Assembly (NCBI GenBank): GCA_036172245.1
Contig: JAYWIR010000127.1
Coordinates: forward strand, 1 to 64,000
Length of the DNA: 64,000 bases
Source of the DNA: Raillietiella orientalis
Taxonomy: Eukaryota
Direction: 5' to 3'
Within the stretch, counting starts at the first letter, position 1. The number at the start of each line of letters is the position of its first letter. The notes beneath the pieces were generated by a model that saw only the letters and a program-made list of their open reading frames with translations, was not told the DNA's origin and ran no database searches. Both the position numbers and the translations under genes were made by a program. This document shows, one piece after another, positions 1-55,402 of this stretch.

Positions 1-572
1 TGGGGACAGTTCGGCATGCAACGTTCCCAACAGGAACGAAGGTTTCAAAAGGCCCCTTTGGTTGCGCTATGCCGCGGCCATCGGAATCCCCTGCGGCAAC
101 CCCAGGGTCGTTCTGAAAGCCCTTTTCGTTGCCGAGGCCCTTCGTCCAGCGGCCTCGTGAGCAGCCCTGTGCTGCCTTCGCGGGATCGTCGCCGTTTGGT
201 GCAAGGCTACGGGAGGACCACACGACCAGGGTCTATGCAGCCAGCATTTCAGTTACTGAGGAGGACGTTTAGATGATCCCACCTGGATCCAGGAATACAG
301 AAGGAGCTTGCCGTCATCCTGCGAAGGATGCAACGGCCCCACTAGCAACCGTGATCCCTTCCATTACCCTCCCAACGTTACTTTTCTTTTTGCTTTTGTT
401 TTTTGTTTTTCCCCTTCGCCCCTGCTGCCGTGGTGGACCGTACCGTTCTGCGAACCGGTGACGCAGCAGGCTCTGTATTTCATCGTGCGTGGCTGGATCA
501 ATGGTCCAGCCACTGCACATCTTTTTAAATGTTTATTTTAGAATAAACGTTCCGGGAAAATCCGGGTGAAAA
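1..572 (+). mobile_element. 3' end of LINE (subfamily A), with an internal deletion
   Basis: Collinear with the reverse complement of 41855-42380 and 42860-42905. Ends AATAAACGTTCCGGGAAAATCCGGGTGAAAA. Confidence 0.9.
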
Positions 573-1007
573 TCGAATGCCTTATGCAAATTTACTGCTA
601 CTGCAAAGGCTATCGGCCTTTCTCCCGTCCTTCCGCACTGGCGCTTACATTCGACAGAAGGTTCTGCAGCTGTTCGGCTGTCCGTTGCAACGCGCTCTTG
701 CAGCTTCCACCAGGTGCACGCGAAAAGAAGGTTCGCATCCATGGATCTTCCCGGTACAGCGTAAGACTGCTTAAGCTTACCACGGAATCCGCGACTTTTT
801 TTAAACGCCTGATTCACAGTTCCGAAAACAACCTGACGTTCGTATTCACTAATGTGATCGGACGCCAGTTGTTGAGTTGGCGCAGATCCCCTCCTTTCGA
901 AAGGGGATGCACCCTCGCTGAGCGGAAGGAAGAAGGGACATCGCTCGTCATCCTTATCAGCGTCGAGAGTCTGAGCAGCAGTGGGGCGAGTTACGTCTTG
1001 AAGCTCT
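573..1007 (-). pseudogene. LINE ORF2 RT fragment, distal part of the element at 1716-5150
   Basis: Translates to QSYAVPGRSMDANLLF...AVNLHKAFD. The frame continues from GENGLPAEFHQSF at ~1720-1760. Confidence 0.9.
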
Positions 1008-1715: not shown

Positions 1716-4700
1716 GTCCTGAAGCTCTGATGGAACTCCGCGGGCAGCCCGTTCTCACCTGGCGTCTTTTGTTTCTTGAGTCCTGCGATGGCGGAAGAAA
1801 CTTCCTTTAACGAGAAGGGCTCGTCGATACGGGCGCATTCCTCCTTGCCGATGCCGTGTGCACCCCGCGACAGAAGCAATTCTGAGAGGATTCTCTCCAT
1901 GATGGATTTGGCGTAGAGCAAGGAGAAGTGACGCCTTAGTGTTCGCCGTACTTCGGCAGGAGCGATGCATTCCCGGCCTTGGTCGTCGAGCAGAATTGCC
2001 GCTCCACACTGCCAGACCTGGCGCTCGGTCCTCGCCTTGTACTCTGCGAGGTGCCGGACTTCCGCACGTCTAGAGAAGGTGCGCGTATGCAGAAATTCTA
2101 AGATAATGGCCACGACTTCTCAAAAGCCGCGCGGTAGGAGCTGCAGAAGGAACCGGTTGCAAAACTCACAAACCGATCTTTTAAGATGGGCCCTGTGTGC
2201 GAGCCGCCGGATGACAAAGCCGCAAAGGAACTAGCGAAAATGTTCCGCCGCCTCCGAATGACTGAGTTATTCCGCCTGCATCCTTTAAACATTGTTCGGA
2301 GGTCCCTTGTTCGATGGGAGTAGCTCGAACTCCAGCCTGTCATACTCCGATAAGTAGGACGGCACCCTGACTCTCCTCCCCACTCGTGAGAGTAGTTGTT
2401 CATGGAGGTAGACGTGATCCACGCTCCCTTCCAGTCGAGTCTCGCCGGCTTCCTAGTTACGCGCTTGCTCTGACGCCGATGCCTCCTTAGCCGCGACCGT
2501 TCCGCCTGGGACCTCGTCGCGTCGGAAAACAGGTGGACGTTGAAGTCCCCTGAGACGAGAGGCGCTACTCTGGCTCCAGAGTTCCTGAGCTATTGGCTCT
2601 CCAGTTCGTCTAAAAACTCGATTCTTTCGTCGCGCCGAAGAAAGCCGCTCGGCGCGTAGACGTTCGTTAGGACGAGGTCGATTGAATCTGACCACTTGAG
2701 TACAAGTTGGCCCATTCGCCCTACCTGGTCGAATCGAACGCTGCGCACCGCTCCTGCCATCCTACTTTTTACGAGAAACCCGACTTTGCACGATTGTGCA
2801 GGACCTTCTTGCCAGTAGAGGGTGACACCCGCGCGCTGTTGAATTTCGGCAACCTCCGCGTGGGAGATGTGATGCATCTGCTGAAGGATCGCCAAGTCGG
2901 AATGTTGCAGGGGGCCTAAGACGCCGCGCCTCTTTCCGTCCCTACGCAGCATGTTCACGTTCCAACAAACTACGCTGAACCGACGAAAAGAGGAGACTTC
3001 CTGAATTAAGGCTAGGAAGGTGAGCACAGGTTTCTCGCCTTGACCGGCGTGTGGTCACGTGACAGAACAACTGATCTTCAAGACTGTACATCTCCATTCG
3101 AATCCGCCTGCTGGTTGGCGGGAGCTCAGAGGTGAGGCTTATCCCCTCCTCTTTGCTCCCCAGCAGCAGTTCCTCATCGGCAACCTCGCGATTACGGGTG
3201 TTCGGGAGGCGATTGTGCGGTTTCGGGCGGTTGTAGCGCTGTGTGCTCTTTCTGTCGGACTCTGGATCAGAATCCGACAGTCGAGGGCTTGCCAGGCGCT
3301 GCTGCTGTCTCCTGGAATTAGGGAAATCGTTCGCTGCCTGTTTCCTAGCGCTTTCTGCAACTGCGGCTGGGACTTTCATCCTCTTAGCCGCAGCAGCAGC
3401 TTTCCGCTCCATCTGCGAGAGGACGACTGCGCAGGAGGGAAGAATCGCAATCTTTTTATGGGAAGGTTTCGCGGCTTTCTTTCGCCCACTCACTTTCACA
3501 CAGAGCTGCGAAGACCTTGATGGTTTTTTTTAATTACCTTTCTCATCTGCATCCAGCCGTCTTCCTTCGCATCGCAGTTATCTTTGCCCTCCTGAGATGA
3601 CGCTGCGTCCGCGAATGTAAGAGGCGCTGCCTTGTCTGCCTGTTGATGTGCTGAATCCGCGCAGGCGTAAGCGACTCCCATAGCGATCGCGGAAGGCGCT
3701 GCCTCTTTCAGAACGGAGGATTGGCGCGTTGCGTTTGCGACCGCTGGAGGCACTGCTCTATTGGTTGTGCTCGCCTTAGCAGTTCCTTCTATGGCCGCAG
3801 TAGGCGCTGAGTCCGCGCGCGAGGACTGCGGGTTTGCCGGCTGTTTCAGCGCGGCACTCAGTGCCTGGGGCACCTTGGCCGCGGTAGCTTCAGACGGCGC
3901 GGTGTTCTTTGCCCGCGGCCGCGTTTCTCCCGTATCGGGCGAACGACCGCATTCCGCGCCGCTCGTCGAGGCCTTGGTACGAGGCTTCGCGGTCGTGATG
4001 CCGACAGTACGAGGCTCTTTGACCTTCGGCACAATGTCTCCTGCATTCAACAATTGGCTGCGAGGTCTTGTAGAAAGGTCGCATTTTTCGCGAGCTCCCT
4101 TCGGCACGGTAGCCTGAGGCTTCGCCGCAACGAGTTTTTTTAGGTTTTTCTCCCCTTCGATGGAGAGGGGAGGAAGAGTTTTCTGCGCATGCGCGCTCGA
4201 GGTTTTCGCAACGCTGTCCGAAGTTTTGAGGTTTCTTTCCCTCGATTCGCGGTGTTTATTTCGCGATGCGAAACGCGCTTCTTTCTTTCACTTTTCGTTT
4301 TTTAAAAAGAGCTCTGGGAACTTTTTTTTTGTGTGTCGGGCTCTTGGCAGTAACGGTCAGTGGCCGAGGGACACTTCGTAATGCGGTGACCCTCCGGCCT
4401 CCATTCCGCGCACAGAAGCGTTTGCCCCGCAAACCAGTCATTCCATTCACCTGCGGTCACGTGGGCATTGCCCGTTGATCCGCCGTCGTCAATCGCACTT
4501 GCGCGATCCCGCTGTGGTGGTCTTCGAAACCCTCAGCAGGGTATGGCAACCTCCGAGGCGCGTGAACGGAGGCGAATTTTTCAAGTGCCTCCATGACCTG
4601 GCGGTCCGTAAGGCACTTGCTCACTCCACTCAGCCGGACAACGAACGATTGATCCGCAGCGGTGGGGAGTATTTCCTGCCCACAAATGAGCAGCAGCGTG

Positions 4701-5150
4701 TGCAGCAAACGCTGCGTAAGGAGAGCGTCCTTACTGGACACCTCACAGTAGCCGCCACCACTTATGGACATGATGCACTCTAGCTGGCCTTTTTGAACTC
4801 CAATCCGTTGGAGTTCCTGGCCAATCTCGCGCCCATCTCGCTCAGGCAAAAGGACACTTACCTTATACCTGAGTAAAGGCGTGTAGTCATTTGCTACATA
4901 CGTTTGCAGCTCCAACGGATATAAAGCGAAGGTCCTATGGTAGCCGCGAGGGCAGCTACCTGGGCGAAGCTCCTCGCCGTCGGCGAGGACATAGCTCCTT
5001 GCTAGCAGCCGAAAACGCCATCTAAGGAACAGGTACCGTTCCTTTCTTGCGGCAGCTGTTCCTCTGCTCCCATTGCAGCACAGAAGCACAGCAGAACCAA
5101 AACACACAAGAGTCACCCTACCGCGGAGCGACGCGAAAGCACGTCCGTAC
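1716..5150 (-). mobile_element. 5' part of LINE: 5' end, degenerate ORF1 (~3000-5050), APE and linker (~1716-2990)
   Basis: VCWNVNMLR, TNVYAPSG and KKQKTPGENGLPAEF. ORF1 has CEVSSKD..SFVVRLSGV. The 5' motif GGACGTGCTTT is at 5136-5146. Confidence 0.9.
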
Positions 5151-6935
5151 GCGTCCGGCGCTGATGCGGGAGGCCGGAGATGTTCCCGCTTGTTTTCGCT
5201 CAGCAAATGTGCGGCTCCTAACGAAAGGCGGGGATTTGCGCAAACTCAGCAACTGGCAACCGATCACCTTGGTGAATTCGGACGTCAAGTTGTTCTTGAA
5301 GCTATAGGTCGCGCGGCTGGGGAGAATCACGGAGTCCTTGGTGAGTCCGGAGCACACGTATGCTGTTCCGTGGCGTTCCATGGACGCGAATCTCTACTTC
5401 GCGCGAACATACTTCGAGTTGCAGCAGCGCGTGGCGCAGCAGAGCCACGCAGCCAAAATCGCCGCTGCCAAAGGTAAGCGGCGGTGTTTAAGGCACGATG
5501 CAACGCCGGGGGCCTTCGCAGTCGCCGTCGATTTCTGCAAAGCATTCGACAGCGTAAACCAGGACCTCCTACTGGAGATTCAGGGACGCCTAGGTCTCCC
5601 GACGCACCTCAACGCCTACTTGCGCTCCTGCTGGCGCCACGAGTTATGTTGTATCTCTTTCAGCAGGCGCCACGTGTACGGCGTTCCCATACGGCGGGGT
5701 ATCAGGCAGGGATACAGCTTAAGGCCCCTGCTCTTCAGCATTATCTCTGAGTTTATGCTTAGGGCGTACAGGCTGATGCTGGCCAACCAGACGAGCTCCT
5801 GCTCAAGAACACCGGCCGTGGCCGCATATGCTGACGACCCTCTCCTGTTGCTGCCCATGTCCACCATGGCGTCCTGGCTCGAAGACTTCTTCGAGCACAT
5901 TCGTCGGAAGACGGGCGTAAGCCTCAAGAGGACCAAGTGCTTCGTTGTACCGGTGAACGCAAAGCGAGGGACTACTTTTGTTGCTGCCCCTCTTTCGGCA
6001 CACCAGGATAGGGTTTGTCTTCCAGCTGAGGCAGCTCTCCTTACTGCTGGAAGCCCAATGTTGGATCTCCTGCCGCCCCATGAACATTAATGCATGGCGG
6101 CAGGAATCTTTTTCATCGTGGGCAGCTTCCAAAGGGACGCCTCTGCAAGATCCTCGACGCCCACGACTACTCCTTAGACATAAATAAGACAAAGTCATGC
6201 AGGACAAGAAGAAGTCGGATCGCCTGGCCGCCACATTACTCGCCGCAGCACTGTGTGCCCTCAGGGCAAGCAACGACAATTGCCTACCTGCGAAATGGGA
6301 GCTCTTCTGCAGAATAGAGGGAGTAAGTAAGCTCCTAGGCAGCTTGAAGACAAAGGAGCTGTTGGAAACTGCCACGCTTCGTAATCGGCCTGAGGGCCTG
6401 CTTCGGTGGAGTGAACATTTAAGTGTACCCCTCGAAGAGATAGTGGTCCCCCCGTTTGTTTGGACAGCTCCGTGTTCCCCTTAAAGTGGAAACAAGATGT
6501 GCTGCTCTTTTTACACTGCGGCTGCTATTGTAATCGGCAGCGAGGCATCGTTTCCAGGGGAGCTGCTCTGCGAAACTGTTCGAGGTGCGGAGAGATCCTG
6601 TGTTTTCCGCACCTCTTATTGGACTGCTGTGACCTCCGTGAACTGTGGCGAAGGCTGATTTGAACCTTCCTACCGCAGGGAGACACTGCCATTGATGTGC
6701 TGCGGCGCTTCATCAGGAGGAATGGATTTTCGGTAGGCGCGGTTGTCGCAACCATGTGTGCATTCGCGCCATCGTGAAGGCCCGCTACGCCCTGGAGGTG
6801 TCAGCGCAGCGAAGGGAGTCTCACCGGTTTGCAGCAGAATTGATGGAACAGGCTGCTAGGTGGCCTCATCTTCGTGACAAGGTCAAAAAGGACATCGACG
6901 GCATTCATCGCCGGTTTACAGACTTCTTCGTATGC
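5151..6935 (+). pseudogene. LINE ORF2 fragment (RT to C-terminal zinc finger)
   Basis: GGDLRKLSNWQPIT, DFCKAFDSVNQ, RRGIRQG, AYADD, CSRCGEILCFPHLLLDC. Similar to 32248-33870. Confidence 0.9.
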
Positions 6936-8527: not shown

Positions 8528-9301
8528 CTACCCCGTGGTGTTCTTGTTTATCGTTGTCGAGGCCGCCCCGAAAAGCACTTTTGAGAGGAGTACTCCGTTG
8601 TATATGTTGGCCTTTCGCTTCATCCCAACGTCAGTTCGGGTGTACTTGGCTGCTTCCTTGGCCGTTCTCCCTAGGATCTCGGTCCACAATAGCTTCGACG
8701 CGGAGTCGTCGCCAACGTAGACACCCAGGTTCTTGGCCGTGTCCACCATTCGGAATCCTCTCCTTGCTAGAGCGGAGAGATCGAGGATACCAACGGGCAA
8801 GAGCTGGCTTTTCTGGGCGTTGATCTTTAGACCCAGGCCTTGATCCATCAGGTCTACCACATCCAGACACGCTCGTTGATTTCTCTCTCCCTTGATAAGG
8901 AAGAGTAGATCATCAGCGTATGCCAGATGGGTAAGACGCTGGCCATCGATTATTATGCCTTGCAATCGTCCGTTCTTCTTGATAAAGGACGACAACGCCT
9001 CCATGTAGATGACGAACAGCATCAGACTTAGCGAATCGCCCTGCCGGACTCCCCATTCCATCCGGATTGCTGATGTCTCCTGGCTGTTGACTTTGATTCG
9101 GCAGTACTGGTTCTTGAGTACCACCCTCACGAAGTTCCTCAAGTGTTCCCGAAGGCCTAGCTTCTCGAGAACCTTCAGCAGCATTCCTTGGTCAATTGAG
9201 TCGAAAGCCTTCTCCATGTCAGAGAACACCAGCGCCAGGTTCTCGTCGACGTATCGGCTGAGTCCCACGGTGGCTTGAACACACTTGACATTGTCCGACA
9301 T
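8528..9301 (-). pseudogene. Reverse transcriptase domain of the divergent LINE ORF2
   Basis: 257-aa ORF with FSDMEKAFDSIDQ, WGVRQGDSLS, LAYADDL and KNLGV. Confidence 0.93.
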
Positions 9302-10857
9302 GTGACGTCCAGGGACTGCACACGTTTGGACCGGAGAGATCAGCTTCGAAATGAACCTGCCTTAGCAGGTAGACCAGATATTCGCCAACAATTGCCATCG
9401 GAGTTCAGGATTCAGATTGGCCTCCATTGAGCGATCTGGGTTGGGTCGCCTCATTTCGGCAACAATCTCATCCTATTCTCATAGAAGGACTGTAAAAGTC
9501 TTCCTTCTTCGCAGATGCACAGGGTCAACTGGTGGAACAAGCGCAGGTAGGCATGCAGGTACCGCTCATAGTGCGTGATGGGTACACTTTGAGGGCCCGC
9601 CGCCACATCCTTACGGGGTTGTCCAAGAGCAGTCTTCACCTCTTCTTCGGAGAATTCCTCCTCCAGTCTGTTCCGCTGGAGGTCGTCGGTCCTGATCTCC
9701 AGATAGCTCAGAAAGGCTTGTTGACTAGAGCGACAGAGATGTTGTCGCCTGAAGTGTTTCGTGTAATGCCTGTGAAAGGCTTCCACGATATCTTCGGACG
9801 ACTGTCGCTCTTGACCGTCGTACTGGATGCAGAAGATATCTGTTGCCAGATTTCTCTTTTCCAGCACGCCGACTTCCCCTTGTATGTTGTTGAGGACGTA
9901 CCGACTCTTGTACTGATCGAAGTACTTTGAGAGTGAGCGATCTTGGATGTTCAGCTCGCGGTACGCCTCCTGCCTCAAGCGCGTATACCCGAATTGCATA
10001 TTTGCAAACAGGTGTATCCTGTGTTTCAAGCTGTCCAAGTCGGCGACTCTTCTGATTTTTGTGGTCTTCAGAATCGTTTCAAGGAACTCCTGATGTCCAG
10101 GATGTGTCTCGAACCAGGCGGGCATGCTAATGAGCGCCGCCCTGATGCCTTGCCTCTGCCGAGGATTCTCCGTTCTTAGGGAAAACCGCACCAAGGGTGA
10201 TCCGACAGAGTGGTCAATGTGTCTCGAAAACCCTGAAAGCAATTCCCTAGTTCTGTGCTGTTGAGTACTTGATGGATCGGCTTGTGACTTGATGTTCGCC
10301 ACACCAGTCCGAACTCGTCGGATAGCCGCCGATACGCAGTCCTTCCCCTGGCATCTTGGGAATGGGTGATCTCATCCGAAATGTTGAGATCGCCAGCAAC
10401 AATCACGACGTCTTTGGGGGCGACCTTTTCACGGAGTGCTGCATGCAGCGCCTCCGCACAACGATGTTTCAGCCTGTGCGGCCCCTACACGTTCACCAGG
10501 ATGGGGTGAACAGTAGCGGACCAGGACAGTCGCACGGCGATGATTCGTCCGGGTTGGGGACAGAACACTTCCAGAATAGTGGGGACCAAGTTGTTCTTGA
10601 TTAGGACCGCCACACCCTGCGTGTTCCGTTCTGCCTCGCTGACGAACATCTGCCTGCTGAATCGCCGTTCCATTTCTTGACTAATCTCGAGACATATCTT
10701 GTGGGTGTCCTGCAGGCACACTATGTCTTGTTGTGCGATGGTCCGCACAATCCTTTTTCTTTTTCCCTGGTCGACCATACCGTTTACATTCCAGGAGGTG
10801 ATGTTCAGCCTCCTGGAGGTCGATAGGAAAGAGGCCATAGGAGGTGTAAGCCTATTT

Positions 10858-12768
10858 CTAGGCCTTACAGAGGTTGTTCCGTCTGAGAGAGCGTGGTCTT
10901 CCAGACGATGAAGAAGCAACGGTCTTCTCACTGCCGGCGTGACTCTCCATTCCGGTGAGGTCAATTACTTTCGCCTCCTCCGTAGAGTGTTCGGCTCGCG
11001 CGATCAATTTTCGGAATAGCGCTTCTATCTCGATCGTGGCGCAGAAGTTTTCCTTTACTTCGAGAAGCTGTTCTTCTAGCGTCTCGCGTTCGGTGACATC
11101 CACAACCTGGTTCAACTTCTCCTGTGCATTGCAGATCTTCTGCAAGATTTGCTCTCGCTGTGGCCCGCTTTGCACGTCCAGCACTTCTCGCGCTAGTGTT
11201 GCGAACTTCTCCGTGGACTGCAGGGCCTCCTGCGACACTGGAATGGCTTCCTGGTTTCCTTCTTCCGCGCCTTCCTGCGCTACCTTTATCTTTTTGCCTT
11301 CCTGCGCTGCTCCTTCTAGGATAAGAGGGGTCTTTTGCTCCTTGACGAGCATCCTCCTGTTTCCTTTCTTCCCTACCTCGATGAAGCCGTTTATCGATAT
11401 CTGGACGGCTTCCTTCTCCTTCTTTGGCCTTTTTGCCAACTTCTGAGGCTGTTAGGCATCCTTGATGTTTCTCTCTCTCACTTGACAGAGTCCTCGAATC
11501 CCTCTGCGATTGGGGAATTATAGACAGCTTCATTTATCGTGTCCGTTCTTCTTGTAGAAGGAGCACACCTCCGGTTGCAAGCAGCTTCGGACTTGATGTC
11601 CTACTTTGCAGCAGCGGAAGCAACGGCATGTTGGGCAAGTACCGGCCCTGTGGCCGAACTGCTTGCACCCGGTGCAGAATATAAGTTTTTGCCGGTAGCG
11701 CATGTTCACTCCCTGGGATTGTTCGTCAATGAACGCCTATCCAGGTATAACAGCTCCGTCCTTCATCTTCATGTTAGCGATCATGTCGCCAGAGAATATA
11801 TTTTTAGAGAAGTTCTTTAATTCAAGGTCCAGAGCCTCCCTAAACTACTCCAATAAGGTCCACACCGTTAGCTGCGGTGTGAGGATGGAAATGCCGTTTA
11901 AGGAGACGGTCGTGTATGGCATCTCGCCAATACCACAAACCGTCCTTCCTTGAATATTGATCCCCTTCTGGATGTATCTCTTTCTGATGTTTTCACAGTC
12001 TGTAAATACTGTGAAACCGTTGCTACTTGGTATAGTCGCCTGTATGCAATCGAAATCGATATCTGTTTTATCCAGGGACAAATACACCTCCCTGATGTTG
12101 TTGAATTTTATTATCCCAGTCTTGAGAATAATGGGCTTTACATTCGGCCCTAGCTCGATTATCCGCCGATCTATCTTTTGAACTTTTTCACATAGCGGCT
12201 TTCCAAATTTTTTAATCGGGTGGACACTCGCTCGTCCAGCCGCCACCGACGGATACGAAAAGGGCTGCGCCGCCTCAGCCGAACAAGATGGCGTCTCGCC
12301 CTGCACCGCGTAGACGCCCGCGAATCCTGCCTGGGATGCCGCCACCGCGAGCGCAACCCTCGACGTCGCCACCGTTGCCGCCGCGGGCGTCACCCTCGGC
12401 ATCTCCGCCGCAGGCGCGACCTTCCCCGCCGCGGGCACGATCCTCGGCGTCGCCGCCGCGGGCACGACCTCCGCCGTCGCCGCCGGGGGCACGACCTCTG
12501 CTGTCGTCGCCGCGGGCACGACCCTTAGCATCGCCGCCGCCGGCGCAGCAAAGCCCGCCGCGGGCGCGATCCTAGGCATGCCTGCCACCACCTCGCCGTT
12601 GCCGCACGCTACCTCCATGGCTTCCATGGGGGACGACGGTCTCTCCACTCCTCCTTCAGGTGCCTGCATCCTGGCAGCTGGTCTTGCTGCACATGACGAC
12701 TGCAGGTCTTCCGCCGTGATCTCCTCGGCGCTTCTTTTGTAGCTGTATGAGGAGATCCTATGCAGCAC
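10858..12768 (-). pseudogene. ORF1 (nucleic-acid binding) of the divergent LINE, frameshifted
   Basis: CTGCKQFGHRAGTC-PTCR-CFRCCKVGHQVRSC at ~11580-11680, an Ala/Pro-rich N-terminus and a Glu/Lys-rich C-terminal part. Confidence 0.85.
12340..12580 (-). repeat. GC-rich ~27-bp coding minisatellite in the ORF1 N-terminus
   Basis: Repeats of GCCGCGGGCACGACC... encoding 9-aa units VVPAATTAE / VVPPAATAE / VVPAAATPR / IVPAAGKVA. Confidence 0.85.
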
Positions 12769-13240: not shown

Positions 13241-13483
13241 GTTATGGCGACTTCAGCGGACCATGTTTTCCTCGTTGAACACTTGCTCTCCCGTGTAGGT
13301 CAGAGAGGTCCCATGCTGTCCGTGCTTTCAGACCACAACAGGCTCGAGTTCTAGTTGCTCTTGTTAGGCAAGAGGCCCATAAACTGTGTTTGAAGGATGC
13401 CAGCAAACTGGTTATTTTACCCGGAGGCGGCGGAGCATCTTCGCCAGTACCTCCGCGACTTTGCCATAAGTGAGCTTGCTTCT

Positions 13484-18177: not shown

Positions 18178-18792
18178 TGTTGCCACCCGGGTAAGTCCGG
18201 GGCGTTTATTCAAAAAAGCTCTCTATGATTCGTGGTATAAGGCCCCACTTCTGCCTTAGACACGCCACCTGTCAGGGCACCGGGACGCAGCCCCGCGTGG
18301 CACTCCCCGACAGCGAAAGGGGATGGGGTAAAAAACAAAAAGAAAAATAAAAGAGATAAACAAAGAAAAAAAGTTTGGTGGGCAGGCAATGGATCACCGG
18401 AAGCTGTGAGGAATGCCCATCTGTCGAAGGAAGCCTTCGAGGTCTGTCCGCATATTTCCCAGATGGGGCCATCGAACAGCTCACCGCAAGAAGCGTACTG
18501 CGTGCTGGAGGACTTCCCTCTCGTTCCAATCTTCATCTTCGCTGTTGGCATCGCTCCAAGTCGACACGATGCCTTGAACTCAGCACAGGACTGCAAGGGC
18601 TGTTGTTGGCTGCAGGGCGTCCCGCACGAAGAGTGGCGGAAAAAGTCTCTGGGTGCAGTGCCCGTAGGGATTCCTAGGGTCGTCCCGAACCGTTCCCAAA
18701 GTGGCCGGAGGGCATCTCAATCTAATATAAGGTATGGGAGCGACTTTTGCTCCCCGCACCTGGCACACTGAGGCCTCACACTTTCCCGCGTC
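18178..18792 (-). mobile_element. 3' end of LINE (subfamily B); continues at 29765
   Basis: Terminal hairpin at 18184-18210 and CARCGEQKSL. TSD-like TTTCCCGCGTC (18782-18792) matches TTTCCCCGCGTC (29765-29776). Confidence 0.88.
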
Positions 18793-21223: not shown

Positions 21224-24200
21224 TGTTGCCACCCGGTTACGCCCGGGGCGTTTATTGAAACTCTACAAAAACGTAGTACGAGGCCCCACTAACGGCCGCA
21301 CAACACCGGACCTGCCGGGACACCGGGACGCAGCCCGGCGTGACGCTCCTCGGCAGTAAAGGGGAGTATGGGAGAAAACAAAAAAAAATTAAATAAAGAA
21401 TAACAAAAGGAGTTTGGAGGGAGGGGAAGGGATCACTATCCACTAGGAGGAGGGTCCATCCTTCGCAGGATTCTCTCTAGGTCCTTCTGCGTATGTCCCA
21501 GATGAGGCCATCTCGCAGCTCTTCGCATGCAGCTCGCAGCATACGGGATGACTTCCCTCTCGTTGGCATCCACTCCTTCATCGCAAATGTCGCTCCAGGC
21601 CGCCACGATGCTCCGGATGCAGCAGAGGGCTGCGGCGGGCTGCAGGGCGTCCCGCGAGAAGAGGGGCCTAAGAACATCTCTGGGCGCGCTGCACAGTGGG
21701 AGCCCGAGGGTCGCCCCGAACCGTTCCCACAGGGGTCGGATGGCAGCACAGTCAACTAGAAGGTTAAGAAGCGATTCCCGCTCTCCACACCTGGCACACT
21801 CAGGGCTTACACTTCCTCGCGTCCAGTGGAAGCGGCGCGCATTGCAGGGAAAACCCCAGTGCAACAGCAGCAGTGCCGACTCTTGCCACTTTAGCGGGAG
21901 AAGCCTGGATCCGATTAATACTATGGGCCACTTGAGGTCATCCGTCGGGATACCGAGCAGCTCGCTCCATCTAACAAGTCCACGCTGAAGGGCACTCGAG
22001 GTCGTGACATCTGCCAGTTCACCCATGGTCCTACCGCTCATTTTCTTTTCCCTGCCTGCGATCCGGCAGGAGACGTGCCACTTCGGCGCCAGGCCGCTGG
22101 TTAGAGCACTTCGTAGGAAGGGCAGCGTCGAAGCCAAAGAACTGGTCTCTGCCCACGTGCTCCTGGCGGGACACTTCATAGTGATCCGTAGGTTGCAGCA
22201 GGCGTTGGGGCCGAGTCCCAGGCGGTTCCATTCACGTCCGGTCTGAAGGTTCAGCTTGGCCCACGTCCCAACGGATTCCTCCAGAAAAGCGGAGGAGTTG
22301 GCGGGGCTGCATACCGTCCAGCCGTTCTCTCTCACCAGGGATTCCATGCGCCCAAGGAGAAGGCCGCATCTCCTGACCTTCCGACCGGGACACAGAAAGA
22401 AAGACGCGAGTAGTTGCTTCCTCGACACACGGCTGGTGATGATGCGGGCCGAAACGCACCAGGGGGTGTTCCACGTCTTTGCTGCGATGGCTAGGGTGCG
22501 TCATCACAGCTGTATGTCCATGCGCTCCAATGTCAGGAGGCCGAGACCACCGTCCCGACGCGGAGCGCATATGTCCTTAAGAGGTGCACGAGGCCTCCCA
22601 CTGCCCCAGAGGGCGATGCGGAGAAGATCTTTAGTCCTCTTCTTTAGGTCACGGGGGACAAGGCACACAAAAAGCAGAGGGCGGAGGATGAAGGCCGCCA
22701 ACGCGTTCCACACCGCGGCCCGTTCCGGCAGAAGAAACCTGCCTTCCAGGAACGGGCCGATTGATAACTCTACCTTTTCGAGACGACCTGACCAGGCTTC
22801 TGCGAGGCAGAATACCCTTAACGGGAAACCAAGTACTTCAGGTACCTGACCTTGGGGATCCATATGCAAATCCAGTCATGCCGTCCATCCCACGTCGCAC
22901 TCACCGGTTCCACCGACGACTTCGCCTTGTTAACCTGCAATCCAGTCCCACGGCTTAGCAGATCGAAGAAATCCTCGACTGCGGTTGCCGGGGCGGACAC
23001 GAACAACATCAGCAGAAGATCGTCGGCGTACGCAGCCACTGCGGGCGGGCTGGGGCACGAACAAGGCAAGGAAGCCAAAGTCACCCTGTACGCTCTCAGC
23101 ACCAACTCAAAGTAGGTGCTGAAGAGCAGGGGACTGAGGCGATAGCCTCAGTCCCCTGCAGTATGCCCTGTCGCAACGGCACGCCGTACGTTGTTTGTCC
23201 GCTAAAGTAGACGTTGATTAGAGCATGCCGCCAGTAAGAGCGCAGATAGGAGAGAAGAGAGGGTGGAAGCCCATGAGACCCAAAAGCTCCAACAGTAGCT
23301 CCTGGTCCACGGAGTCCAACGCCTTGTGGAGATCGACTGCAATCGCTAGGGCCCCCTTCCCTGCCCCGGTGTGCGTTCTCATCCCAGCTGGAGGTCCCAA
23401 ATGTGGGGTTGCCAATCCTTGTCGCTGTTTTATGGTGACATTTTTGCATATGGAACCATGTGCTCGCGAAGAACAGGTTGGCATGCATACTTCGAACGGG
23501 AACAGCGTATGTCGGCTCCGGGCTAATTATGGAGTCTGCTACCTGTCCAAGACGCGAAGCCCACAGTCCAGCAGTCAGCTTGGCGTCCGTGTTCACAATC
23601 GTGACCGGACGCCAATTGTTCAATGTTCTCAGGTCTCCTACCTTAGGGAGTAACCTCACTCTGGCTAACGGAAACGAGGCGGGAACATCACCTTCGTCTC
23701 GGATCAGCCTGGTCAACTGAAGCACCAGGGGTGCCAACTCTGTCGCGAATCACTGGAGAAACTCCGAGGGCAGGCCGTCCTCCCCTAATGCTTTCCTCCT
23801 TTTGAGCCTTTTAATACCGGCGAGAATTTCGCCAGTGGTAAAAGGCTCGTGGAGGCTAATCGTCTCTTCCTCCCCTATTGCCGGAGTTCAGTCAGGAAGC
23901 AGGAGCCGCGAGGCATCACGCTCTGAGGGTGCCTTGACGTAGAGGGAGAAGTAGAATCGTCGCACGAGGTGCCTGATCGCGGGTGGGGCCGAGCGTTCCT
24001 GGCCCTCGTCGTCCAGCAAGCTGGCCGACCCGGATTGCCAGGCTTGGGGCTCGGCCCCGGCTCGGAATTCTGCTAGGCGACGGACGTTGGGGTTCTCTCG
24101 TTCCGGCGCTCCTGTGAATAAGCCGTATGGTTGGGAGCTTCTTCCCCTAATCCGGGGGGCAGGCGGTGCAACGGAAACTCCTCGCAGAACTCGAGAACCG

Positions 24201-26856
24201 ATTCCTTAAAGATGACCCAGTCAGCGAGATTCCGGAGGGTGATGCCTCTCAGGAATTGGCGAACGTGTTCCTTCGCACCTTAGAGCCGCTTCCAGTCCCC
24301 AGGCAGCCGCCAGGCCCTTAAAGGGTGTCCTTTGTAGCGCGGGCATACCTCTGCGATTAACCAAGAATGGTCCGACAGCGTCGACGCAACTCTCCCCCGT
24401 TTGCCGACCCGCGAGCACAGGTCGGCATCCAGGAAGACGTGGTCCATGCTGCGGTCCATTCCCTCCACGTCCGCCAGCAAGTTATGTGTGCGCATGGCAG
24501 TGCACAGCTAGTTGTCCGTGCGTACTTCTTCTTTAAGCTCACCAGACAGCAGACGAAGATTAAAGTTCTCAGCTATCAGGTGTGCCTTCCGCACGTTCGT
24601 ATCGGCCAGCCATTCGCGCATAAGGGTTTCCAGCAGCCTGGTACGGTCGCTGTATCCCTTTTTTCCGCTCGAAGCGTATACATTCGTGACGATCAGGTCG
24701 ATCGAATCGGACCAGCTGAGAATCAGCTGACCGACCCGACCGTCGTCATCGAAGCGCACGCCCTTCACGGCAGCGTCGATGGCCGGCTTCACGAAGAACG
24801 CGACCCCGCAGGAGTTGCGGAGGCCACATCGCCAAAACAGGCGACCCCCCGCGATCGTCTCGATCTCCTGGACGTCTGCCGCGGTGATCAGGTGGATCTC
24901 CTGCAGCAGGGCCAGGTCGAAGTCACGCAGGGTGTCGGCCGTATCTCGTCTGTTGCCGTCGTCGCGCAGCCCGTTGACGTTCCAACTGGCCATGCGGATC
25001 CGAGGCGACAGGCGAGCCCAGGTGTTATTCCTGAGAAATTGGCTCTGCGGCGTCCGCCACCTGTTCGGGCGGGACGCTAGGTGGAGGGGGAGGGTCAGGT
25101 GCTGAAGGCACCTGGTTTCCCTCCTCCATGTGTAACGGCGCGTCGTCCGGTTCACCCTCAGGTGGGGTCGCGCCTCCCTGTTCGCCCTCCTCCATGGAGG
25201 CGGGCTGTTCAGGTTAGGCGACTACAGGGGAGACTTCGCCTCCCTGTTCACCATCCTTCATGGGGGTGGCCTGCTCGACAGCTTCCGTGAGTGGGAATTC
25301 CACCTCCAGGTTTCCCACGCTGGCGTCGGCTTCCAGCTTCTTCTCCTCGCTCGTGGAGGGGAGGCGTGGAGGGTTTTTAGGACTTACGTCCCGTCTACCG
25401 GGGTGGTTCATCCGAGGAGGAGAATGCACTTCCGGCCCCCAGGTCGAACTCACCTTCGGGGGCCTTCTTCGGCGGAGCCGGCCTGCGCACGGCCTTGCGT
25501 GAGGGGTTGTCACCTCGGCCAGAGTGACCGCGAGCTCCTCCGCCGCATTCGCGAAGGCGGCGTCCTCACCGTCGGCGCGCGCATCGCGCGGCTCACCTTC
25601 TGTGTAAACAGAGGGTTCGTCGTCATGAACCTCGAGCGCGGCGGAAACAGCTAGGGGAGGCTCGTCGCCCCAGGTGGCAGCCTCAGGAACGCTTACGCGA
25701 TCCAGTGCTACCGAGCACTCGCGGAGTTTTTCTGACAACGGCGCGGCTTTATTCTTTTTGCCGGCCGTGTTCTTGTTTTCCGTTTTCTTCAGTGGTTCTT
25801 TCATCACTTGTTTCTCCTTCCTGACCTTGACCAGTTGCCTTCCTTCCTCAACTCCCGCGTCTTCCGCGGTTTTATCCTCCGACGCTTGGGTGAGAGGAAG
25901 AGGAGGTGGCGGCTGGGGCCGGCCAGTTTCTCGCTTAGGTCTTTCGACCTTGTTCATTTTTTAAGCCTGCGCCTTTTTGGCAGCAGGTGGCACCAAGGAG
26001 GGGCGTTTAGGGCACACACGACGCACGTGTCCCTTAAACCCGCACAAGTGACAATGTTCGGGCACTGCTTGCGCAAGTGCCCTACTGCATTGCAAAAGCC
26101 ACAATAGCGGGGTTTCCCTACGTACCAGAGGTCGACGGATTCCTTCGTGACCTCGACTTTGTGGGGCAATTCAGCACTCTCATTGACAGTGACACGCGCT
26201 GCAGCCTGGTCTCCGAAATGGCTATGCAAGCCTTCCAAGATGGTGAGCTTTGGCCACAACGCGTGTATCTCTCCGTATTTCATCAACTCGTAATTGACCG
26301 CCGAGCGCGTCATCCGATTTGTTATTCCGGTTAGATGGACCACTACGGAGCGGTCCATGCTAACCGGTAGGATTTTCCGGCCATCCACATTCAGCGGGGT
26401 GTTTATCAGGCGCTGTGCTAAGGCTACGTCTTTGCAGACGACCTCCACGCGCTGCCCCCCGCTGAGTACGGAGAGGCCGTCAATATCCTCTTCTCTTACA
26501 TAAAAGTCCTGTAGCGCCTTACTGAAGGCTTAAGCTGTGCGATTATCAAACAGGGGTCCTACCTTATAAACCAGAGATGGCTTATATCCTGAGGCCCTGT
26601 AAGCCGCTTGCTCCGCCAAGGTTTCCGCGCTCGGCGCGGCCACCATGGCGCTCCACGTCCTTGGCGTTGTCGGGGATGATTCCACGGCGGACCCAGTAGG
26701 CCGTGGGGGGGGACTAGGCTTCCCTTCGCCTACCTCCATCGTGGTGTCCTCTGGCAGCGATGCCATCGGATACCAACGATGTGAAAAAACACACACTTTC
26801 CAAGAAGAAACCACTTCCCGGTACTTGTTGACGGAGCAACGGAAAAACACGTCCTT
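21224..26856 (-). mobile_element. Full-length (~5.6 kb) LINE, subfamily B, inserted antisense into the ORF2 of the + element
   Basis: 5' motif at 26841-26854, ORF1 start MASLPEDTTMEV (~26766), CCHC, APE, RT AYADD, zinc finger CARCGERESL and 3' hairpin at 21230-21256. Confidence 0.93.
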
Positions 26857-29764
26857 CCTTAACGAAAGGGCGTATTTGCACGCCCGTCGTTTCTCGAGGA
26901 CCCCTAACATCCGTCGCTTGGAGGAATACAAACCCGGGGCCGAGCGTCAAGCCTGGCAATCCGGGCCGCCCAGCGTGCTGGACGACCTGCACCAGAAATA
27001 CTCGGACCCGGCATCGATACGTCACCTCGTGCGTGGATTTTACTCCTTCTTTTACGCCAGGGTACCTGCGGAGTGGGACGTCTCGCGACGCTTGCTCCCA
27101 GATGGAGCCCCGGCCACAGGGGAGGAGGAGAAAGAAAGCCTCGACGAGCCCTTTACGACCGGTGAAATCATCCCCGCTATTAAAAGGCTCAAGAAGCGTA
27201 AGGCTCCAGGGGAGGACGGCCTGCCGGCGGAGTTCATTCAGAGCTTCGCGGCAGAGCTGACCCCCTTGGTGCTCCAATTGACACGGCTTATCCGAAACGA
27301 AGGCAGTGTTCCCGCCTCGTTTTGGTCAGCCAGGGTGAGGCTCCTTCCTAAGGGAGGAGACCTCAGAAAATTATGCAACTGGCGTCCGATCACGATTGTG
27401 AACACGGACTCCAAGCCGCTGGCTGGACTGTGAGCTGCGCGACTGGGGCAGGTAGCTGACAGCTTCGTCAGCCCGGAACAGACGTACGCTGTTCCCGGGC
27501 GAAGCATGGAAGCGAACCTATTCTTCGCCAGCACATGGTTCCATGTGCAACGCGAGAAAAATTTGGAAAAAGAACGGAATGTCGACAATCCTGATTTGGA
27601 AGCGCCAGCGCAGCAAGTAAGGGACGACCGGGAAGGGAAGGGGGCTTTAGCGATCGCAGTCGATCTGCACAAATCGTTCGATTGCGTGGACCAGGAACTC
27701 CTTCTGGAGCTCTTGGATTGCATTGGCTTCCCGGACACCTTAACGGTCTACCTGCGCTCCTGCTGGCGCAATGCTAACATCAACTTGTTTTTCAGATGCC
27801 AGCACGGGTTCGGCGTGCCGGTGAGGCGCGGCATCCGGCAGGGCGACAGCCTGAGTCCCCTGCTCTTTAGCACCTATTTCGAACTCGTGATGAGAGCATA
27901 CAGGGTGACATTGGCTGCCCTGCCAAGCTCGTGTCCAGGTACGCCGGCCGTATCGCCTCACGCCGATGATCTTCTGCTCCTTTTGCTAATGTCCGCCCCG
28001 GCAGCCGCAGTCATGGATTTCTTCGATCTGCTAAGCCGCGGGACTGGACTACGGGTAAATAAGGCGAAGTCATCGGTGATAGCGGTTGGTGCGAATTGGG
28101 TCGGACGGCCTGACTGGATCCGCTTGGGGATCCCCACAGAGAGGTACTTGAAGAACCTCGGCGTTCCGTTGGAGGACTTCTGCCAGTCAGAAGCCTGGTC
28201 AGGTCGTCTCCAAAAAGTGGAGTCAGCGATCGGCCCGTTCCTGGAAGGCAAGCTTTACTTGCCGGAACGGGCCGCGGTGTGGAACGCGTTTGCGGCCCCC
28301 CTCCTTCGCCCTCTGCTTTTTGTTTGCCCCGTACCCCGTGAACTGGAAAAAAGAACAAAGGACTTCCTACGCATTGTTGTGTGGGGAGGCGGGAGGCCTC
28401 ATGTGCCTTTAAAGGATTTGTGCGCTCCACGTCGGGAAGGAATTCTTATCGTCCTGACGATGGAGCGAATGGAAAACACAGCTGCGGACGCGCACTCTAG
28501 CCATCGCAGCAAAAATGTGGAACACCCCTTGGTGCGTTCCAGCCCGCCTTCTCGCCAGACGTCTGTCCGGGACTGTAGGACTCGCGTTTTTTCTTCTGTG
28601 CCCCGGCCGGAAAAAAAGATGCGGACTTCTCCTGGGACGCATGGCCACCCTGGCAAAAAGGAACGGGTGGATGGCCTGCAGCCCTGCCAACTCCAGCGTA
28701 TGGCTGAAAGAAACAGTTGGAACGTGGGCAAAGTTGAAACACATCACTGGAGAATCCTGCAACCGCCTGCGCACCGGCATTTACACCCGCTGTACGCTGC
28801 GAAACATGATCATTTGTCCCACCAGAAGCACTTGGGCGGAGACGACCCCACTGGCCACGGCGCTGCCCTTCCTACGAAGGGCGCTTCGAAACAGACGAAA
28901 GCCGAGATGGCAAGTCTCCTGCCGGATAGCGGGCAAAGAGAAGGATCTAAGCGGGTGGACAATGAGGGAACTGGCAGACGCCGCAACCCCAAGCGTTCAC
29001 CCGCATTGAATACGGAGATGGGGCAAGCTGCTTGGCATCCCGGCGGATGACCTAGAGTGGCCCTCGTTATTTACAGACGCATCCACCCTCCTCTTCAAGT
29101 GGCAGGAAACGGGGCTGTTGTTGTTGCACTGAGGTCTTTCCTGCAACGAGCGCCGCCACCACTGGACGTTGGGGAACGTGGGGCAGAACTGTGCAGTGTG
29201 CGGGGAGAAGGAATCCCTCCCCCATCTGTTAGTGGACTGCGGTGCCCTCCGGCCCTTGTTGAAACGTTATGCTACGACCCTCCCTATGCCGGTCGGCAGT
29301 ACCCCCAGAGACGCTGTGAGACTCCTCTTCGTGCGAGACGCCCTGTCACCAGCCTCAACCCTGGCAGCGCTCTGCTGCCTCCGAGGGATTGTGGCCGCCT
29401 GGAGCGAAGCCAACAGAGGAAGCAGCAACCGGGACTTCATCGTACACGCGGGTCGCTACCTGCGAATCGCGATCGGATGGTTCCATCTGGTAGCTATGAC
29501 GAGGGACCTCGAGGGCATCCTGGAAAGAATGGTCCTCTTCTACAGCGGGCTGTGATCCCTTCCCGGCCCTCCAAATAGTTTCTTTTTGTTATTTCATTTA
29601 TTTTTCTTTTTGTTTTACCCCCTATCCCCTCCGTTGCCGAGGAGGACAAGCTGGCCTCAGAACCGGCTTCCTGGCAGGTCCGATGAAATATTGGCCGTAG
29701 CGGGGCCCAGTACCGCAAATGTAAAGTGTTTTTTAATAAACACCATGGCGTGACCGGGTGAAAA
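26857..29764 (+). mobile_element. LINE 3' half (linker, RT, zinc finger, 3' end); continuation of 18793-21223
   Basis: Resumes at NERAYLHARR, then DLHKSFD, GIRQGDSLSP, HADD and CAVCGEKESLPHL. Terminal motif at 29735-29760. Confidence 0.92.
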
Positions 29765-32247
29765 TTTCCCCGCGTCTAGTGGAAGCAGTGCGCGTTGCAG
29801 GGTAGACCTAAGTACAACAGCAGAAGCGCCGTCTCTTGCCAATTTAGAGGAACAAGTCTGGATCCGATGAATACTGGGGGCCACTTCAGGTCATCAGTCG
29901 GAATGCCGAGGAGCTCATTCCATTTCAAAAGTCCGCGCGGGAAAGCACTAGGGGTCGTGGCGTCTGCCAGCTCTCCCATGGTCCAACCGATCATCTTTTT
30001 TTCGTTTCCTGCGATTTGGCAAGAGACTTGCCACTCTGGCAACAGGCCACTTGTTAAATCCCTCCGTAGAAAGGGCAGCGTTGAAGCTAAAGGGGTGATC
30101 TCAGCCCACGTGCTCCTTGCGGGACACTTCAGAGTGCTCCGTCGGGTGCAGCCGGCGTTGGGGCCGAATCGCAAGCGGTTCCAATTTTCGGTTCCTGGGT
30201 TGTTCAGCTAGGCCCACCTCGCAACGGATTCCTCCTGCCGAGCGGAGGAGTTGGCGGGGCTGCATATTGTCCAGCTGTTTTCCTTCACCAGGGCTTCGAT
30301 GCGTCCAAGGAGAAGGCCGCATCTCCTGACTCTCCGGCAGGGGCACAGAAGGAAAGACGCGAGTCCTTGCGTGCTGGATACACGACTGGCGAGGATGCGC
30401 GTCGGAGCGCACCAGGGGGTGTTCCACGTCTTTGCTGCGATGGCGAAGGTGCGCCATTGCAGCTGTCTGTCCAAACGCTCCAACGTCAGGAAGCCAATTC
30501 CTCCGTCACGACGCGGAGCGCATATGTCCTTAAGAGGTGCACGAGACCTCCCACTGCCCCAGAAGGCGGCCTTTAGTCCTCTTCTTTAGGTCACGGGGGA
30601 CAAGGCACAGAAAAAGCAGAGGGCGGAGGATGAAGGCCGCCAACGCGTTCCACACCGCGGCCCGTTCCGGCAGAAGGAACTTGCCTTCCAGGAACGGGCC
30701 GATTGATAACTCTACCTTTTCGAGACGACCTGAGCAGGCTTCTGCGAGGCAGAATACCCCCAACGGGACACCCAGGTACTTCAGGTACCTGACCTTGGGG
30801 ATCCATATGCGGATCCAGTCAGGCCGTCCATCCCACGTCGCACCCACCGGTTCCACCGGCGACTTCGCCTTGTTTAACTGCAGTCCAGTCCCACGGCTTA
30901 GCATGTCGAAGAAATCCTTGACTGTGGCTGCAGGAGCGGGCATGGGCAACATCAGCAGAAGATCGTCGGCGTACGCAGCCACTGCGGCTGCATGCCAGCG
31001 CAAGAGCTCGGTATGGGGGACAAAGTCACCCTGTACGCTCTCAGCACCAACTCAAAGTAGGTGCTAAAGAGAAGAGGACTGAGGCTATCACCCTAATGTA
31101 TGCCTTGCCGCACCGGCATGTTGTGCACCTGTTGACACGAAAAAATGATGTTTACAATAGCGTTGCGCCAGCAGGAGCGCATGTGGGAAATCAGGGAGGG
31201 TTGGAAGCCTATGCGAACCAGGAGCTCTAACAGTAGCTTCTGGTCCACGCTGTCGAACGCCTTATGCAGATCGACCGCGATCGCTTGGGCGCCCTTTCCA
31301 GCCTTGGTATCGGTTCTTAGCCCCGCTGGCGGCAACAAAGTAAGCCTGCCAATCTTGCTCCCTGATTCGTTTGGGTAGCGTCGCACATGGAACCATGTGC
31401 TCGCGAAAAACAGGTTGGCAACCATACTTCGCCCGGGAACAGAGTATGTCTGCTCCGGGCTAATTATGGAGTCTGCCACCTATCCTAGACGCGAAGGCCA
31501 CAGTCTAGCAATTAGCTTGGTGTCCGTGTTAACAATTGTGACCAGACGCTAATTGCTCAGTGATCTCAGGTCTCCTCCCTTTGGAAGCAGCCTCAATTGG
31601 GCTGACCGAAACGAAGCGGGAACGTCACCTTCGTCTCGGATCAGCCTGTTCAACTGAAGCACCAGTGGTGCCAACTCTGTCGCGAAGCATCGGAAAAACT
31701 CCGCGGGCAGGCAGTCCTCCCCTGGTGATTTCCTTTTTTTGAGCCTTTTAATACCGGCGAGAATTTCACCGGTAGACAAAGGCTCGTGGAGGCTAATCGT
31801 CTCTTCCTCCCCTATTGCCGGAGTTCAGTCAGGAAGCAGGAGCCGCGAGGCATCACGCTCTGAGGGTGCCCTGACGTAGAGGGAGTAGTAGAATCGTCGC
31901 ACGAGGTGCCTGATCGCGGGTGGGGCCGAGCGTTCCTGGCCCTCGTCGTCCAGCAAGCTGGCCGACCCGGATTGCCAGGCTTCACGCTCGGCCCCGGCTC
32001 AATATTCGGCCTGGCGACGGACATTGGGGGTCCTCTCTTACCATCAGGCCTGTAAATAGGCCGTATGGTTGCGAGTCCCCTTCCCAAAATGGGGGGGCAG
32101 GCGGTGCAAGGGGAACTCCTCGCAGAACTCGCGGACCGAGGCCTTAAAAGGTCCCTGTCAGCGATATTCCGGAAAGTGACACCTCTCAGGAATTAGCGAA
32201 GGTGTTCTGTCGGCCCTGAAAATCGCGTCCAGTCACCAGGCAGCCGC
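29765..32247 (-). mobile_element. LINE ORF2 central part; continuation of 18178-18792
   Basis: WQETALLLL, AYADD, KYLGV, DLHKAFDSVDQ and KSPGED. Confidence 0.9.
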
Positions 32248-51690: not shown

Positions 51691-51692
51691 TG

Positions 51693-55400: not shown

Positions 55401-55402
55401 TG

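Follow-up and report, generated by a model that had tools for sequence, protein, structure and literature searches.

Two related L1-like retrotransposons inserted antisense at the same reverse transcriptase codon of divergent sister elements

Two insert junctions in the KAFD codon

This study concerns a 64,000 nt stretch of Raillietiella orientalis DNA (assembly GCA_036172245.1, contig JAYWIR010000127.1, positions 1 to 64,000 of the forward strand; hereafter the window) and two copies, A1 and A2, of one lineage of long interspersed nuclear element (LINE) that it contains. Both copies lie antisense within other LINEs, and both interrupt the reverse transcriptase (RT) reading frame of their host in the Asp codon of the motif KAFD. 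Positions within elements are given on element B (46040-51684, - strand, ~5.65 kb), the best-preserved copy, which served as our coordinate reference (ref). The features at the two sites, including a target-site duplication (TSD), are listed below; APE denotes the apurinic/apyrimidinic endonuclease-type domain, ORF an open reading frame, UTR an untranslated region and RRM an RNA recognition motif.

1-572, + strand: A1, a LINE of lineage A represented by its 3' part, ending ...AATAAACGTTCCGGGAAAATCCGGGTGAAAA and running off the window start
573-1011, - strand: host 1, part of the RT of a LINE from a divergent subfamily, interrupted after ...VNLHKAF-D(GA) and mapping to ref 3584-3144
1012-1715, - strand: M, a 5'-truncated LINE lying sense in host 1 at ref 3144, with its 3' end at 1012
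1716 onward, - strand: continuation of host 1 beyond insert M
41036-41854, + strand: left part of host 2 (element G), ref 2759-3583, ending ...VDLH*AF-D(GA); its left bound is the 5' end of element H at 41035
41840-41854, + strand: left copy of the TSD, 15 bp, GCATTAAGCGTTCGA
41855-46039, - strand: 3' portion of A2, with 3' UTR, C-terminal region, RT (43531-44307) and APE (44676-45731)
46040-51684, - strand: B, a full-length LINE lying sense in A2, with 5' end GGACGTGTTTTTCC at 51684 and 3' end CCGGGTG at 46040
51685-53037, - strand: 5' portion of A2, with 5' end GGACGTGTTTTCTC at 53037 and an ORF1 that has an RRM-like region and two CCHC knuckles
53038-53047, no strand: 10 extra nt, ACCCTAAAGC, between the A2 5' end and the TSD
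53048-53062, + strand: right copy of the TSD, GCACAAGGCGGTCGA, where host 2 resumes with HKAVDCVDQ
53048-55137, + strand: right part of host 2 (G), ref 3570-5638, with its own 3' end ...CCGGCTG at 55132

Read on the insert strand, the A1 junction (572/573) is ...CCGGGTGAAAA|TCGAATGCCTTATGC and the A2 junction (41855/41854, reverse complement) is ...CCGGGTGAAAA|TCGAACGCTTAATGC. In the sense of the host, both flanks end in TTCGA, of which GA forms the first two bases of the KAFD Asp codon, and in both hosts the next bases are TTTTCACCCGG, the insert end in reverse complement. Up to the junction, the host translations read ...AFAVAVNLHKAFD (...VNLHKAFD) in host 1 (- strand) and ...ALAIEVDLH*AFD in host 2 (+ strand), and both flanks map to ref 3583-3584, antisense to the insert. 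The target sequence across the KAFD nick is ...GCATAAGGCGTTCGA^CTGCGTGGACC.... A preliminary description of the window, made without database searches, had placed both junctions at the same position of the host KAFD motif; the junction reads and the ref mapping agree on this, and the host peptides that it quoted, NLLFACTWWKLQERV and NLFFTSTWFHVQSS, are both present in the translations.

The same description had host 2 resuming at 53048 with a degenerate 15-bp TSD, and this also stands: GCATTAAGCGTTCGA and GCACAAGGCGGTCGA are identical at 11/15 positions. On uninterrupted copies, the two flanks of host 2 overlap on 14-17 nt (ref 3570-3583; 27667-27683), and the TSD is therefore taken as real. 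The 11.2 kb between the TSD copies had been treated as a single element, and here the description has to be revised, as the segment consists of a full-length A2 with a full-length B inserted in sense; an 840-aa reading frame in it corresponds to two tandem ORF1s, one from A2 and one from B. The telomere-like heptamer CCCTAAA in the 10 extra bases at 53038-53047 was considered and discarded, being at chance level in the window (5 found vs 5.9 expected). Insert M of host 1 is flanked by a TSD of its own of ~14 bp, CAGAGCTTCA(G/A)GAC.

A1 had been described as truncated at position 51. Its positions 51-572 align to A2 42377-41855 at 86%, and its bases 1-44 match A2 42903-42860 at 43/44, as against 86% over the next 522 bases. 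Because bases 1-44 are themselves A-element sequence, 5' truncation at 51 with a TSD in bases 1-25 is ruled out, and on this alignment A1 is an internally deleted copy, lacking ~480 bp relative to A2 and continuing past the window start.

The preliminary description had proposed comparing the divergence of the inserts with that of the hosts, and the two are unequal. A1 and A2 are identical at 451/522 positions (86.4%), whilst their hosts, over the 440 bases adjoining the junction, are identical at 276/422 (65.4%, with 31 gap columns; Fisher p = 3.6e-14). Host 1 shows 64-68% identity to each of the other copies, and 65.4-66% to host 2. Over the RT segment, by comparison, the identity of host 2 is 83.2-84.5% with B, 78.5% with D, 77.4% with E and 77.1% with F-right (the letters denote LINE copies of the window), and the KAFD site is uninterrupted in all four. 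An ancestral insertion shared by hosts 1 and 2 would therefore require clean loss of the insert in four closer relatives of host 2. Across 46 gapless codons, the two hosts differ at 16, 6 and 18 first, second and third codon positions, which is modest evidence that their divergence built up in active lineages before the insertions, as opposed to decay in place. These comparisons thus give good support for the view that the two A copies, close relatives of each other, inserted independently into hosts that are only distantly related, in line with the earlier view that the hosts belong to different subfamilies and that independent insertion is favoured over segmental duplication; on the same comparisons, a single ancestral insertion at KAFD that was simply duplicated is rejected.

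A nest of L1-like elements and its recurrent sites

Positions 1 to ~57,900 of the window form a dense nest of retrotransposons without long terminal repeats (non-LTR elements), at least 57 kb in length and with a G+C content of 51-62%. The nest boundary lies at ~57.9 kb; the remainder (~57900-64000) is AT-richer (G+C 43-49%) and without homology to the reference element, and neither long reading frames nor Rfam matches were seen in it. An Rfam search of the whole window matched 0 families. Between 13 and 41 kb, the structure of the nest was resolved only in part.

In both B and A2, Pfam recognizes Exo_endo_phos (APE; 1.1e-12 and 9.9e-14, respectively) followed in the same order by RVT_1 (7e-21 and 1.9e-20). 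Among solved structures, human L1 ORF2p is closest to the RT (E 4.5e-42, vs 1e-11 to 1e-13 for R2 proteins), and at E <= 0.01 the endonuclease finds L1-EN-type chains only (~3e-7). The best longer homologues combine APE, RVT_1 and zf-RVT in the plant-type L1 architecture, at identities of <=31%; the few that are named (Closterium, Corylus and Trifolium) are streptophyte L1s. An ESM Atlas search returned generic RVT_1 clusters only. The 553-aa frame of B shows a C-x2-C...H-x4-C string, CARCGERKPLPHLIVDC, a candidate for the Cys/His knuckle (zf-RVT) that L1-clade elements have C-terminal to the RT; Pfam at E <= 0.01 names no family for this frame. With APE upstream of RT, and with both RT and endonuclease closest to L1, the nest elements classify, on domains and best matches, as L1-clade non-LTR retrotransposons.

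Full-length copies begin with GGACGTGTTTTT, and at least five such 5' ends are present in the window. At the 3' end, copies carry AATAAA, a short GC-rich palindrome and CCGGGTG (or a closely similar form), with 0-4 A after it (at most 5 purines); the poly(A) tail that marks the L1 clade is absent from 12/12 3' ends. A stem of 7 pairs was predicted by RNAalifold on the 3' ends, and was rejected as unsupported, with none of the 7 pairs showing compensatory change.

Other parts of the nest are of note. A further RVT_1 frame at 8528-9361 (- strand; E 1.9e-20) belongs to a more divergent LINE of the same nest, and the ~7-13 kb stretch around it gives no DNA-level alignment to the reference element. 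At 32247-32250 and at 36243-36340, elements of opposite orientation meet 5' to 5' and ~550 bp of expected host is absent, which may reflect target deletions or nesting that is still to be disentangled. At 12378-12544, a GC-rich unit is repeated in tandem, in 3-4 copies and with a period of 27 or 48 bases.

Eleven 3' ends were located by motif search and a twelfth, that of K, by sequence reading; a profile search returned the same 12 and none further. All 12 adjoin another LINE copy, at nine distinct ref positions:

A1 and A2: ref 3583, antisense to host
D and F: ref ~2759, antisense to host
I and K: ref ~2679, antisense to host
E: ref 5078, antisense to host
N: ref ~2037, antisense to host
G: ref ~3331, antisense to host
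M: ref ~3141, sense to host
B: ref ~1380, sense to host
O: ref ~3056, sense to host

Half of the 3' ends (6/12) thus fall in three sites that are each used twice, and the remaining 6 lie elsewhere. Two more events are known by their 5' junction alone: H, the third at ref 2759, and J, which abuts element I. Nine of the 12 3' junctions are antisense to the host; with the two 5'-only events the count becomes 11/14 (one-sided p = 0.03), a value that counts same-site events, which are not independent.

The ref ~2759 site lies in the linker between APE and RT, within GF(S/G)VA^S(L/R)NERAYL, and has received three antisense insertions: D, with its 3' end at 21229/21230 in E and its 5' end at 26854/26855; F, with its 3' end at 18183/18184 in X; and H, with its 5' end at 41035/41036 in G. 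The joins read ...GTGTTGC^CACCCGG and ...GGAA|GGACGTG, D has no TSD, and the 5' junction of H is identical to that of D (...CGTTA(A/C)GGAA|GGACGTG). On the visible side, all 3/3 occupied hosts carry GTGTTGC^TTCC(T/G)TAACGAAAGG, whilst four unoccupied copies (B, A2, F-right and D) have unrelated sequence there. The restriction of this sequence to occupied hosts suggests that a longer sequence is recognized at ref 2759. Host 2 itself (41036-41854) looks mosaic when compared with B (48138-48962) and E (26855-27681): it is B-like over the RT segment, yet has E's TTCCGTAACGAAAGG at the ref-2759 site. GTTGC^ also precedes insert G (55132-55145), at the non-homologous ref ~3331 (motif TDAKL..VA), as it does at 21225-21229 and 18179-18183, and the O junction (55409) ends ...GTGC^; GTTGC^ may represent a primer-end preference of the tail-less lineages.

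At ref ~2679, the 3' ends of I (38655, in host H) and K (13484, in host 13250-13483) meet host proteins that align without gaps over 28 residues to the junctions (...RNLNW^ and ...SELAS^). This coincidence is uncertain by up to 5 nt, as K's AGAAG is either tail or host. For all same-site pairs compared (4/4), the inserts are more alike than the hosts: 86 vs 65% for A1/A2, 80 vs 70-76% for D/H, 75.2 vs 66.6% for D/F, and ~72% vs a weak host match for I/K.

To express these coincidences against chance, each of 200,000 simulations drew 14 events from a uniform distribution over 2 x 5650 oriented positions. One or more exact coincidences arose in 0.8% of simulations, at least two in 0.0015% (1.5e-5) and at least three in none; the window contains five coincident pairs, in three groups. 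We infer that the nest has at least three sites of recurrent insertion, the KAFD site among them.

A probable positional preference and its alternatives

We consider it probable that A1 and A2 arose as separate insertions of lineage A by target-primed reverse transcription (TPRT), and that the repeated hit reflects a real positional preference within sister LINEs, acting as a bias and not as an absolute rule. The inserts of the nest have a TPRT-type signature, with defined 5' and 3' ends and TSDs of ~12-15 bp (A2, B, E and M) or none (D). As read from the sequence, the host sense strand at the KAFD site was nicked after ...TTCGA^C, in the Asp codon of RT motif A, and the ...TTCGA-3' end primed cDNA synthesis from A RNA, the cDNA starting with TTTTCACCCGG. 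Since the primer was a 3'-OH of the host sense strand, the new copy lies antisense to the element around it. The TSD of host 2 goes back to a further nick, made 15 bp upstream. A1, A2 and E each end in exactly four A residues, which suggests that the terminus is templated, and RT may start at a defined 3' end, possibly via the conserved 3' sequence. The preference itself could originate in recognition by APE, in pairing between the primer and the RNA end, or in local features of DNA or chromatin. Template switching or twin priming was rejected by reasoning: such events yield an inverted stretch upstream of the sense part or a sense-to-sense join, and a 3' end abutting an antisense, TSD-bearing host is not their product.

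The only public sequencing run found, X1, contains 21% of sampled window words, as contigs. The LINE family is abundant in this run, with 749 contigs resembling 40001-56000 (38 at >=99%, 106 at 95-99%, 177 at 90-95% and 428 below 90%). One X1 contig spans the host over the A2+B insert (41848 to 53060), representing an uninterrupted paralogue, and another spans A2 without B, joining 46032 to 51708. A contig of depth 2.7 links position 42350, in A-like sequence, with host position 53051, which falls 3 nt into the right-hand TSD copy; this single low-depth, short-read contig provides a lead towards a third, 5'-truncated A copy at the KAFD site. The loose ends of X1 among those listed (at least six) all fall in the low-complexity segment 42016-42070. 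Separately, 11 metagenome loci matching the A-type 3' end AATAAAN{8,14}AAATCCGGGTGAAAA were set aside as chance matches, having no BLAST similarity to the window.

Several observations weigh against a preference of this kind. The window has 11 recognizable KAFD sites, of which 8 are intact, 2 occupied and 1 followed by a deletion, and one of the intact sites (31275-31240) differs from that of B at only 4/36 bases. Element I, which is 84.5% identical to A2 in the RT, inserted at ref ~2679 instead, where the two targets are identical at only 11/30 bases upstream of the junction; the latter counts against simple sequence recognition at that site. A shared nick motif was sought across the readable junctions and none was visible, the contexts being ...GTTCGA^CTGCG (A), ...GTGTTGC^TTCC (D, F and H), ...GGGGAAA^GTGTG (E), ...GGTTTA^ (B), ...CTCTGT^ (M) and ...CAGTTGC^ (G). 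The A junctions at KAFD number two in the window, plus the low-depth contig elsewhere, and all elements are old and degenerate. Lastly, the D and H inserts are 80.1% identical as compared with 76.0% and 70.3% for their hosts, a similar divergence, and part of the wider pattern, the D/H pair, could stem from copied composites. In its copy, the KAFD half-site at 57371-57393 (...GTAAAGCGTTCGT) is followed a few bases on by a ~170-bp internal deletion.

Copied composites deserve consideration for the KAFD pair too, in the form of one ancestral insertion spread by unequal exchange or segmental duplication, its A parts later homogenized by gene conversion from a younger A. The collinear alignment of D+E with H+G across the junction (26545-27683 vs 40716-41856) and the similar divergences of the D/H hosts and inserts would suit such a history, and the accessible text of a Chlamydomonas study attributes change in a ZeppL centromere array to unequal exchange, not transposition (PMC9977147). 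It appears highly improbable to us for A1 and A2, whose identity of 86% gives way to 65% right at the junction. Precise loss of the insert would be needed in four uninterrupted copies that are much nearer to host 2 than host 1 is, second codon positions are spared between the hosts, unlike in a duplicate decaying in place, and the inserts are the more alike in 4/4 insert/host comparisons. A misjoin of an A 3' end to the wrong flank during assembly can hardly be credited: the two junctions are unlike on either side (14% difference between inserts, 35% between hosts) and do not represent a single repeat that was collapsed, the 5' end of A2 is defined and a TSD is present there, and the host reading frames extend right up to both junctions. 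What speaks for an artefact is the setting, a dense repeat nest for which the sole public run found holds 21% of sampled words as short contigs.

Regional targeting, for example to centromere-like chromatin as proposed for Zepp and ZeppL, combined with no more than a TTCGA primer end, would make the repeated hit a matter of moderate luck. TTCGA occurs 14 times per reference element, both strands counted, and under a TTCGA-only requirement a same-site A/A pair is therefore already a ~1-in-14 event. All 12 3' junctions do lie in LINE DNA, GTTGC^ is found at two non-homologous positions (ref 2759 for D and F, ref 3331 for G), and no long motif is common to the sites. However, a single window would hardly be expected to yield three same-site groups, even with ~14 candidate positions per lineage, and ref 2759 is occupied only where GTGTTGC^TTCC(T/G)TAACGAAAGG is present (3 hosts vs 4 unoccupied copies). 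We regard the regional explanation as unlikely, and favour separate TPRT insertions with a positional bias. The preliminary description had gone further, in proposing that the endonuclease prefers a conserved RT-coding sequence and so disables sister elements. Such a preference is plausible from two junctions and one contig; disabling of the host RT would be its consequence, not a demonstrated function.

A more far-reaching interpretation, which we hold to be doubtful, is that the nest harbours a guild of L1-like lineages, each homing base-precisely and mostly antisense on its own ORF2 position of sister LINEs. In such a guild, lineage A would be assigned to the KAFD codon, B-like elements to the APE-RT linker (GF.VA^S.NERAYL) and I and K to ...RNL.W^. 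The antisense bias and the host sense-strand primer lead us to speculate that the strand nicked would be the one displaced when LINE RNA pairs with homologous DNA. If the guild exists, it would amount to hyperparasitism of LINE on LINE, in which competitors are inactivated and a self-contained, possibly centromeric safe harbour grows.

Comparison with known retrotransposon systems

The elements of the window resemble human L1 in that ORF2p and L1-EN are their closest solved relatives and in their TPRT with TSDs of 12-15 bp. Human L1 uses loose TTTT/AA nick sites genome-wide, with poly(A) priming; the window elements, unlike human L1, have neither poly(A) nor T-rich nick sites. Repeated use of one position in a multicopy target is familiar from R1 and R2, which insert in 28S rDNA, and from Tx1L, an L1-clade element that inserts in the Tx1D transposon; all three place essentially all copies at a single site. 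In contrast, 6/12 3' ends here are distributed over three sites and 6 lie elsewhere, and the target is the coding sequence of a sister LINE. With nine 3' positions in use and eight KAFD sites empty, the window elements are not strictly site-specific LINEs of the R1/R2/Tx1 type.

The nearest parallel in overall arrangement is given by Zepp (Coccomyxa/Chlorella) and ZeppL-1_cRei (Chlamydomonas), which the accessible text of the reports describes as L1-clade LINEs in nested clusters at putative centromeres (PMC8226300, PMC3446292, PMC9940879, PMC11005252, bioRxiv 10.1101/2025.03.28.645958). Zepp-type clusters are given there as 1.5-42 kb, one per chromosome (PMC3446292). As in Zepp and ZeppL, and comparing by description, L1-like LINEs with APE and RT nest in their own copies in the window, in a GC-rich nest of tens of kilobases; at >=57 kb, and with 12/12 3' junctions in LINE DNA, it is a nested, localized cluster of the same kind. 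Zepp and L1-1_CR carry (A)n tails, and 5/15 green-algal L1 families have no 3' repeat, as far as the accessible portion of that survey goes (PMC3747384, Table 3). Unlike Zepp and L1-1_CR, the window elements end in CCGGGTG plus 0-4 A and so are of the kind that lacks a 3' repeat, and given those five families the absence of poly(A) does not exclude membership of the L1 clade. A further difference lies in the 5' ends: by their description, Zepp arrays consist mainly of 3' ends from 5'-truncated copies, and the window has at least five full 5' ends.

A search of the literature for self-targeting or site-specific nested non-LTR elements yielded, in the text accessible to it, Cnl1 of Cryptococcus neoformans as the sole second self-inserting element. 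Cnl1 is a non-LTR element that prefers its own copies and is found in arrays (PMC12810828). According to the accessible part of the same source, it stands near R2/MoTeR, is telomere-adjacent and has one ORF, and its exact specificity is described as undefined (PMC12810828). Preferential self-insertion is common to Cnl1 and the window elements, which, unlike Cnl1, are L1-like with an APE endonuclease.

On target choice, the accessible Zepp and ZeppL literature states only that the elements 'target existing copies'; base-precise ORF2 sites, antisense bias and targeting of RT motifs are not described in it, the original Zepp papers lying outside its coverage. Should the preference be only regional and combined with a short motif, it would be an ordinary trait of a nested LINE cluster. 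If it is real, base-precise sites in the coding sequence of sister elements would turn target recognition into a testable problem, with a defined DNA substrate on which the APE endonuclease could be assayed, and would allow insertions in centromere-like nests to be dated and ordered; it would also provide an example of competition between transposon lineages. Self-targeting L1 nests are already known from the systems above, and base-precise, mostly antisense, recurrent ORF2 sites are plausibly the new part that the present nest adds to them.

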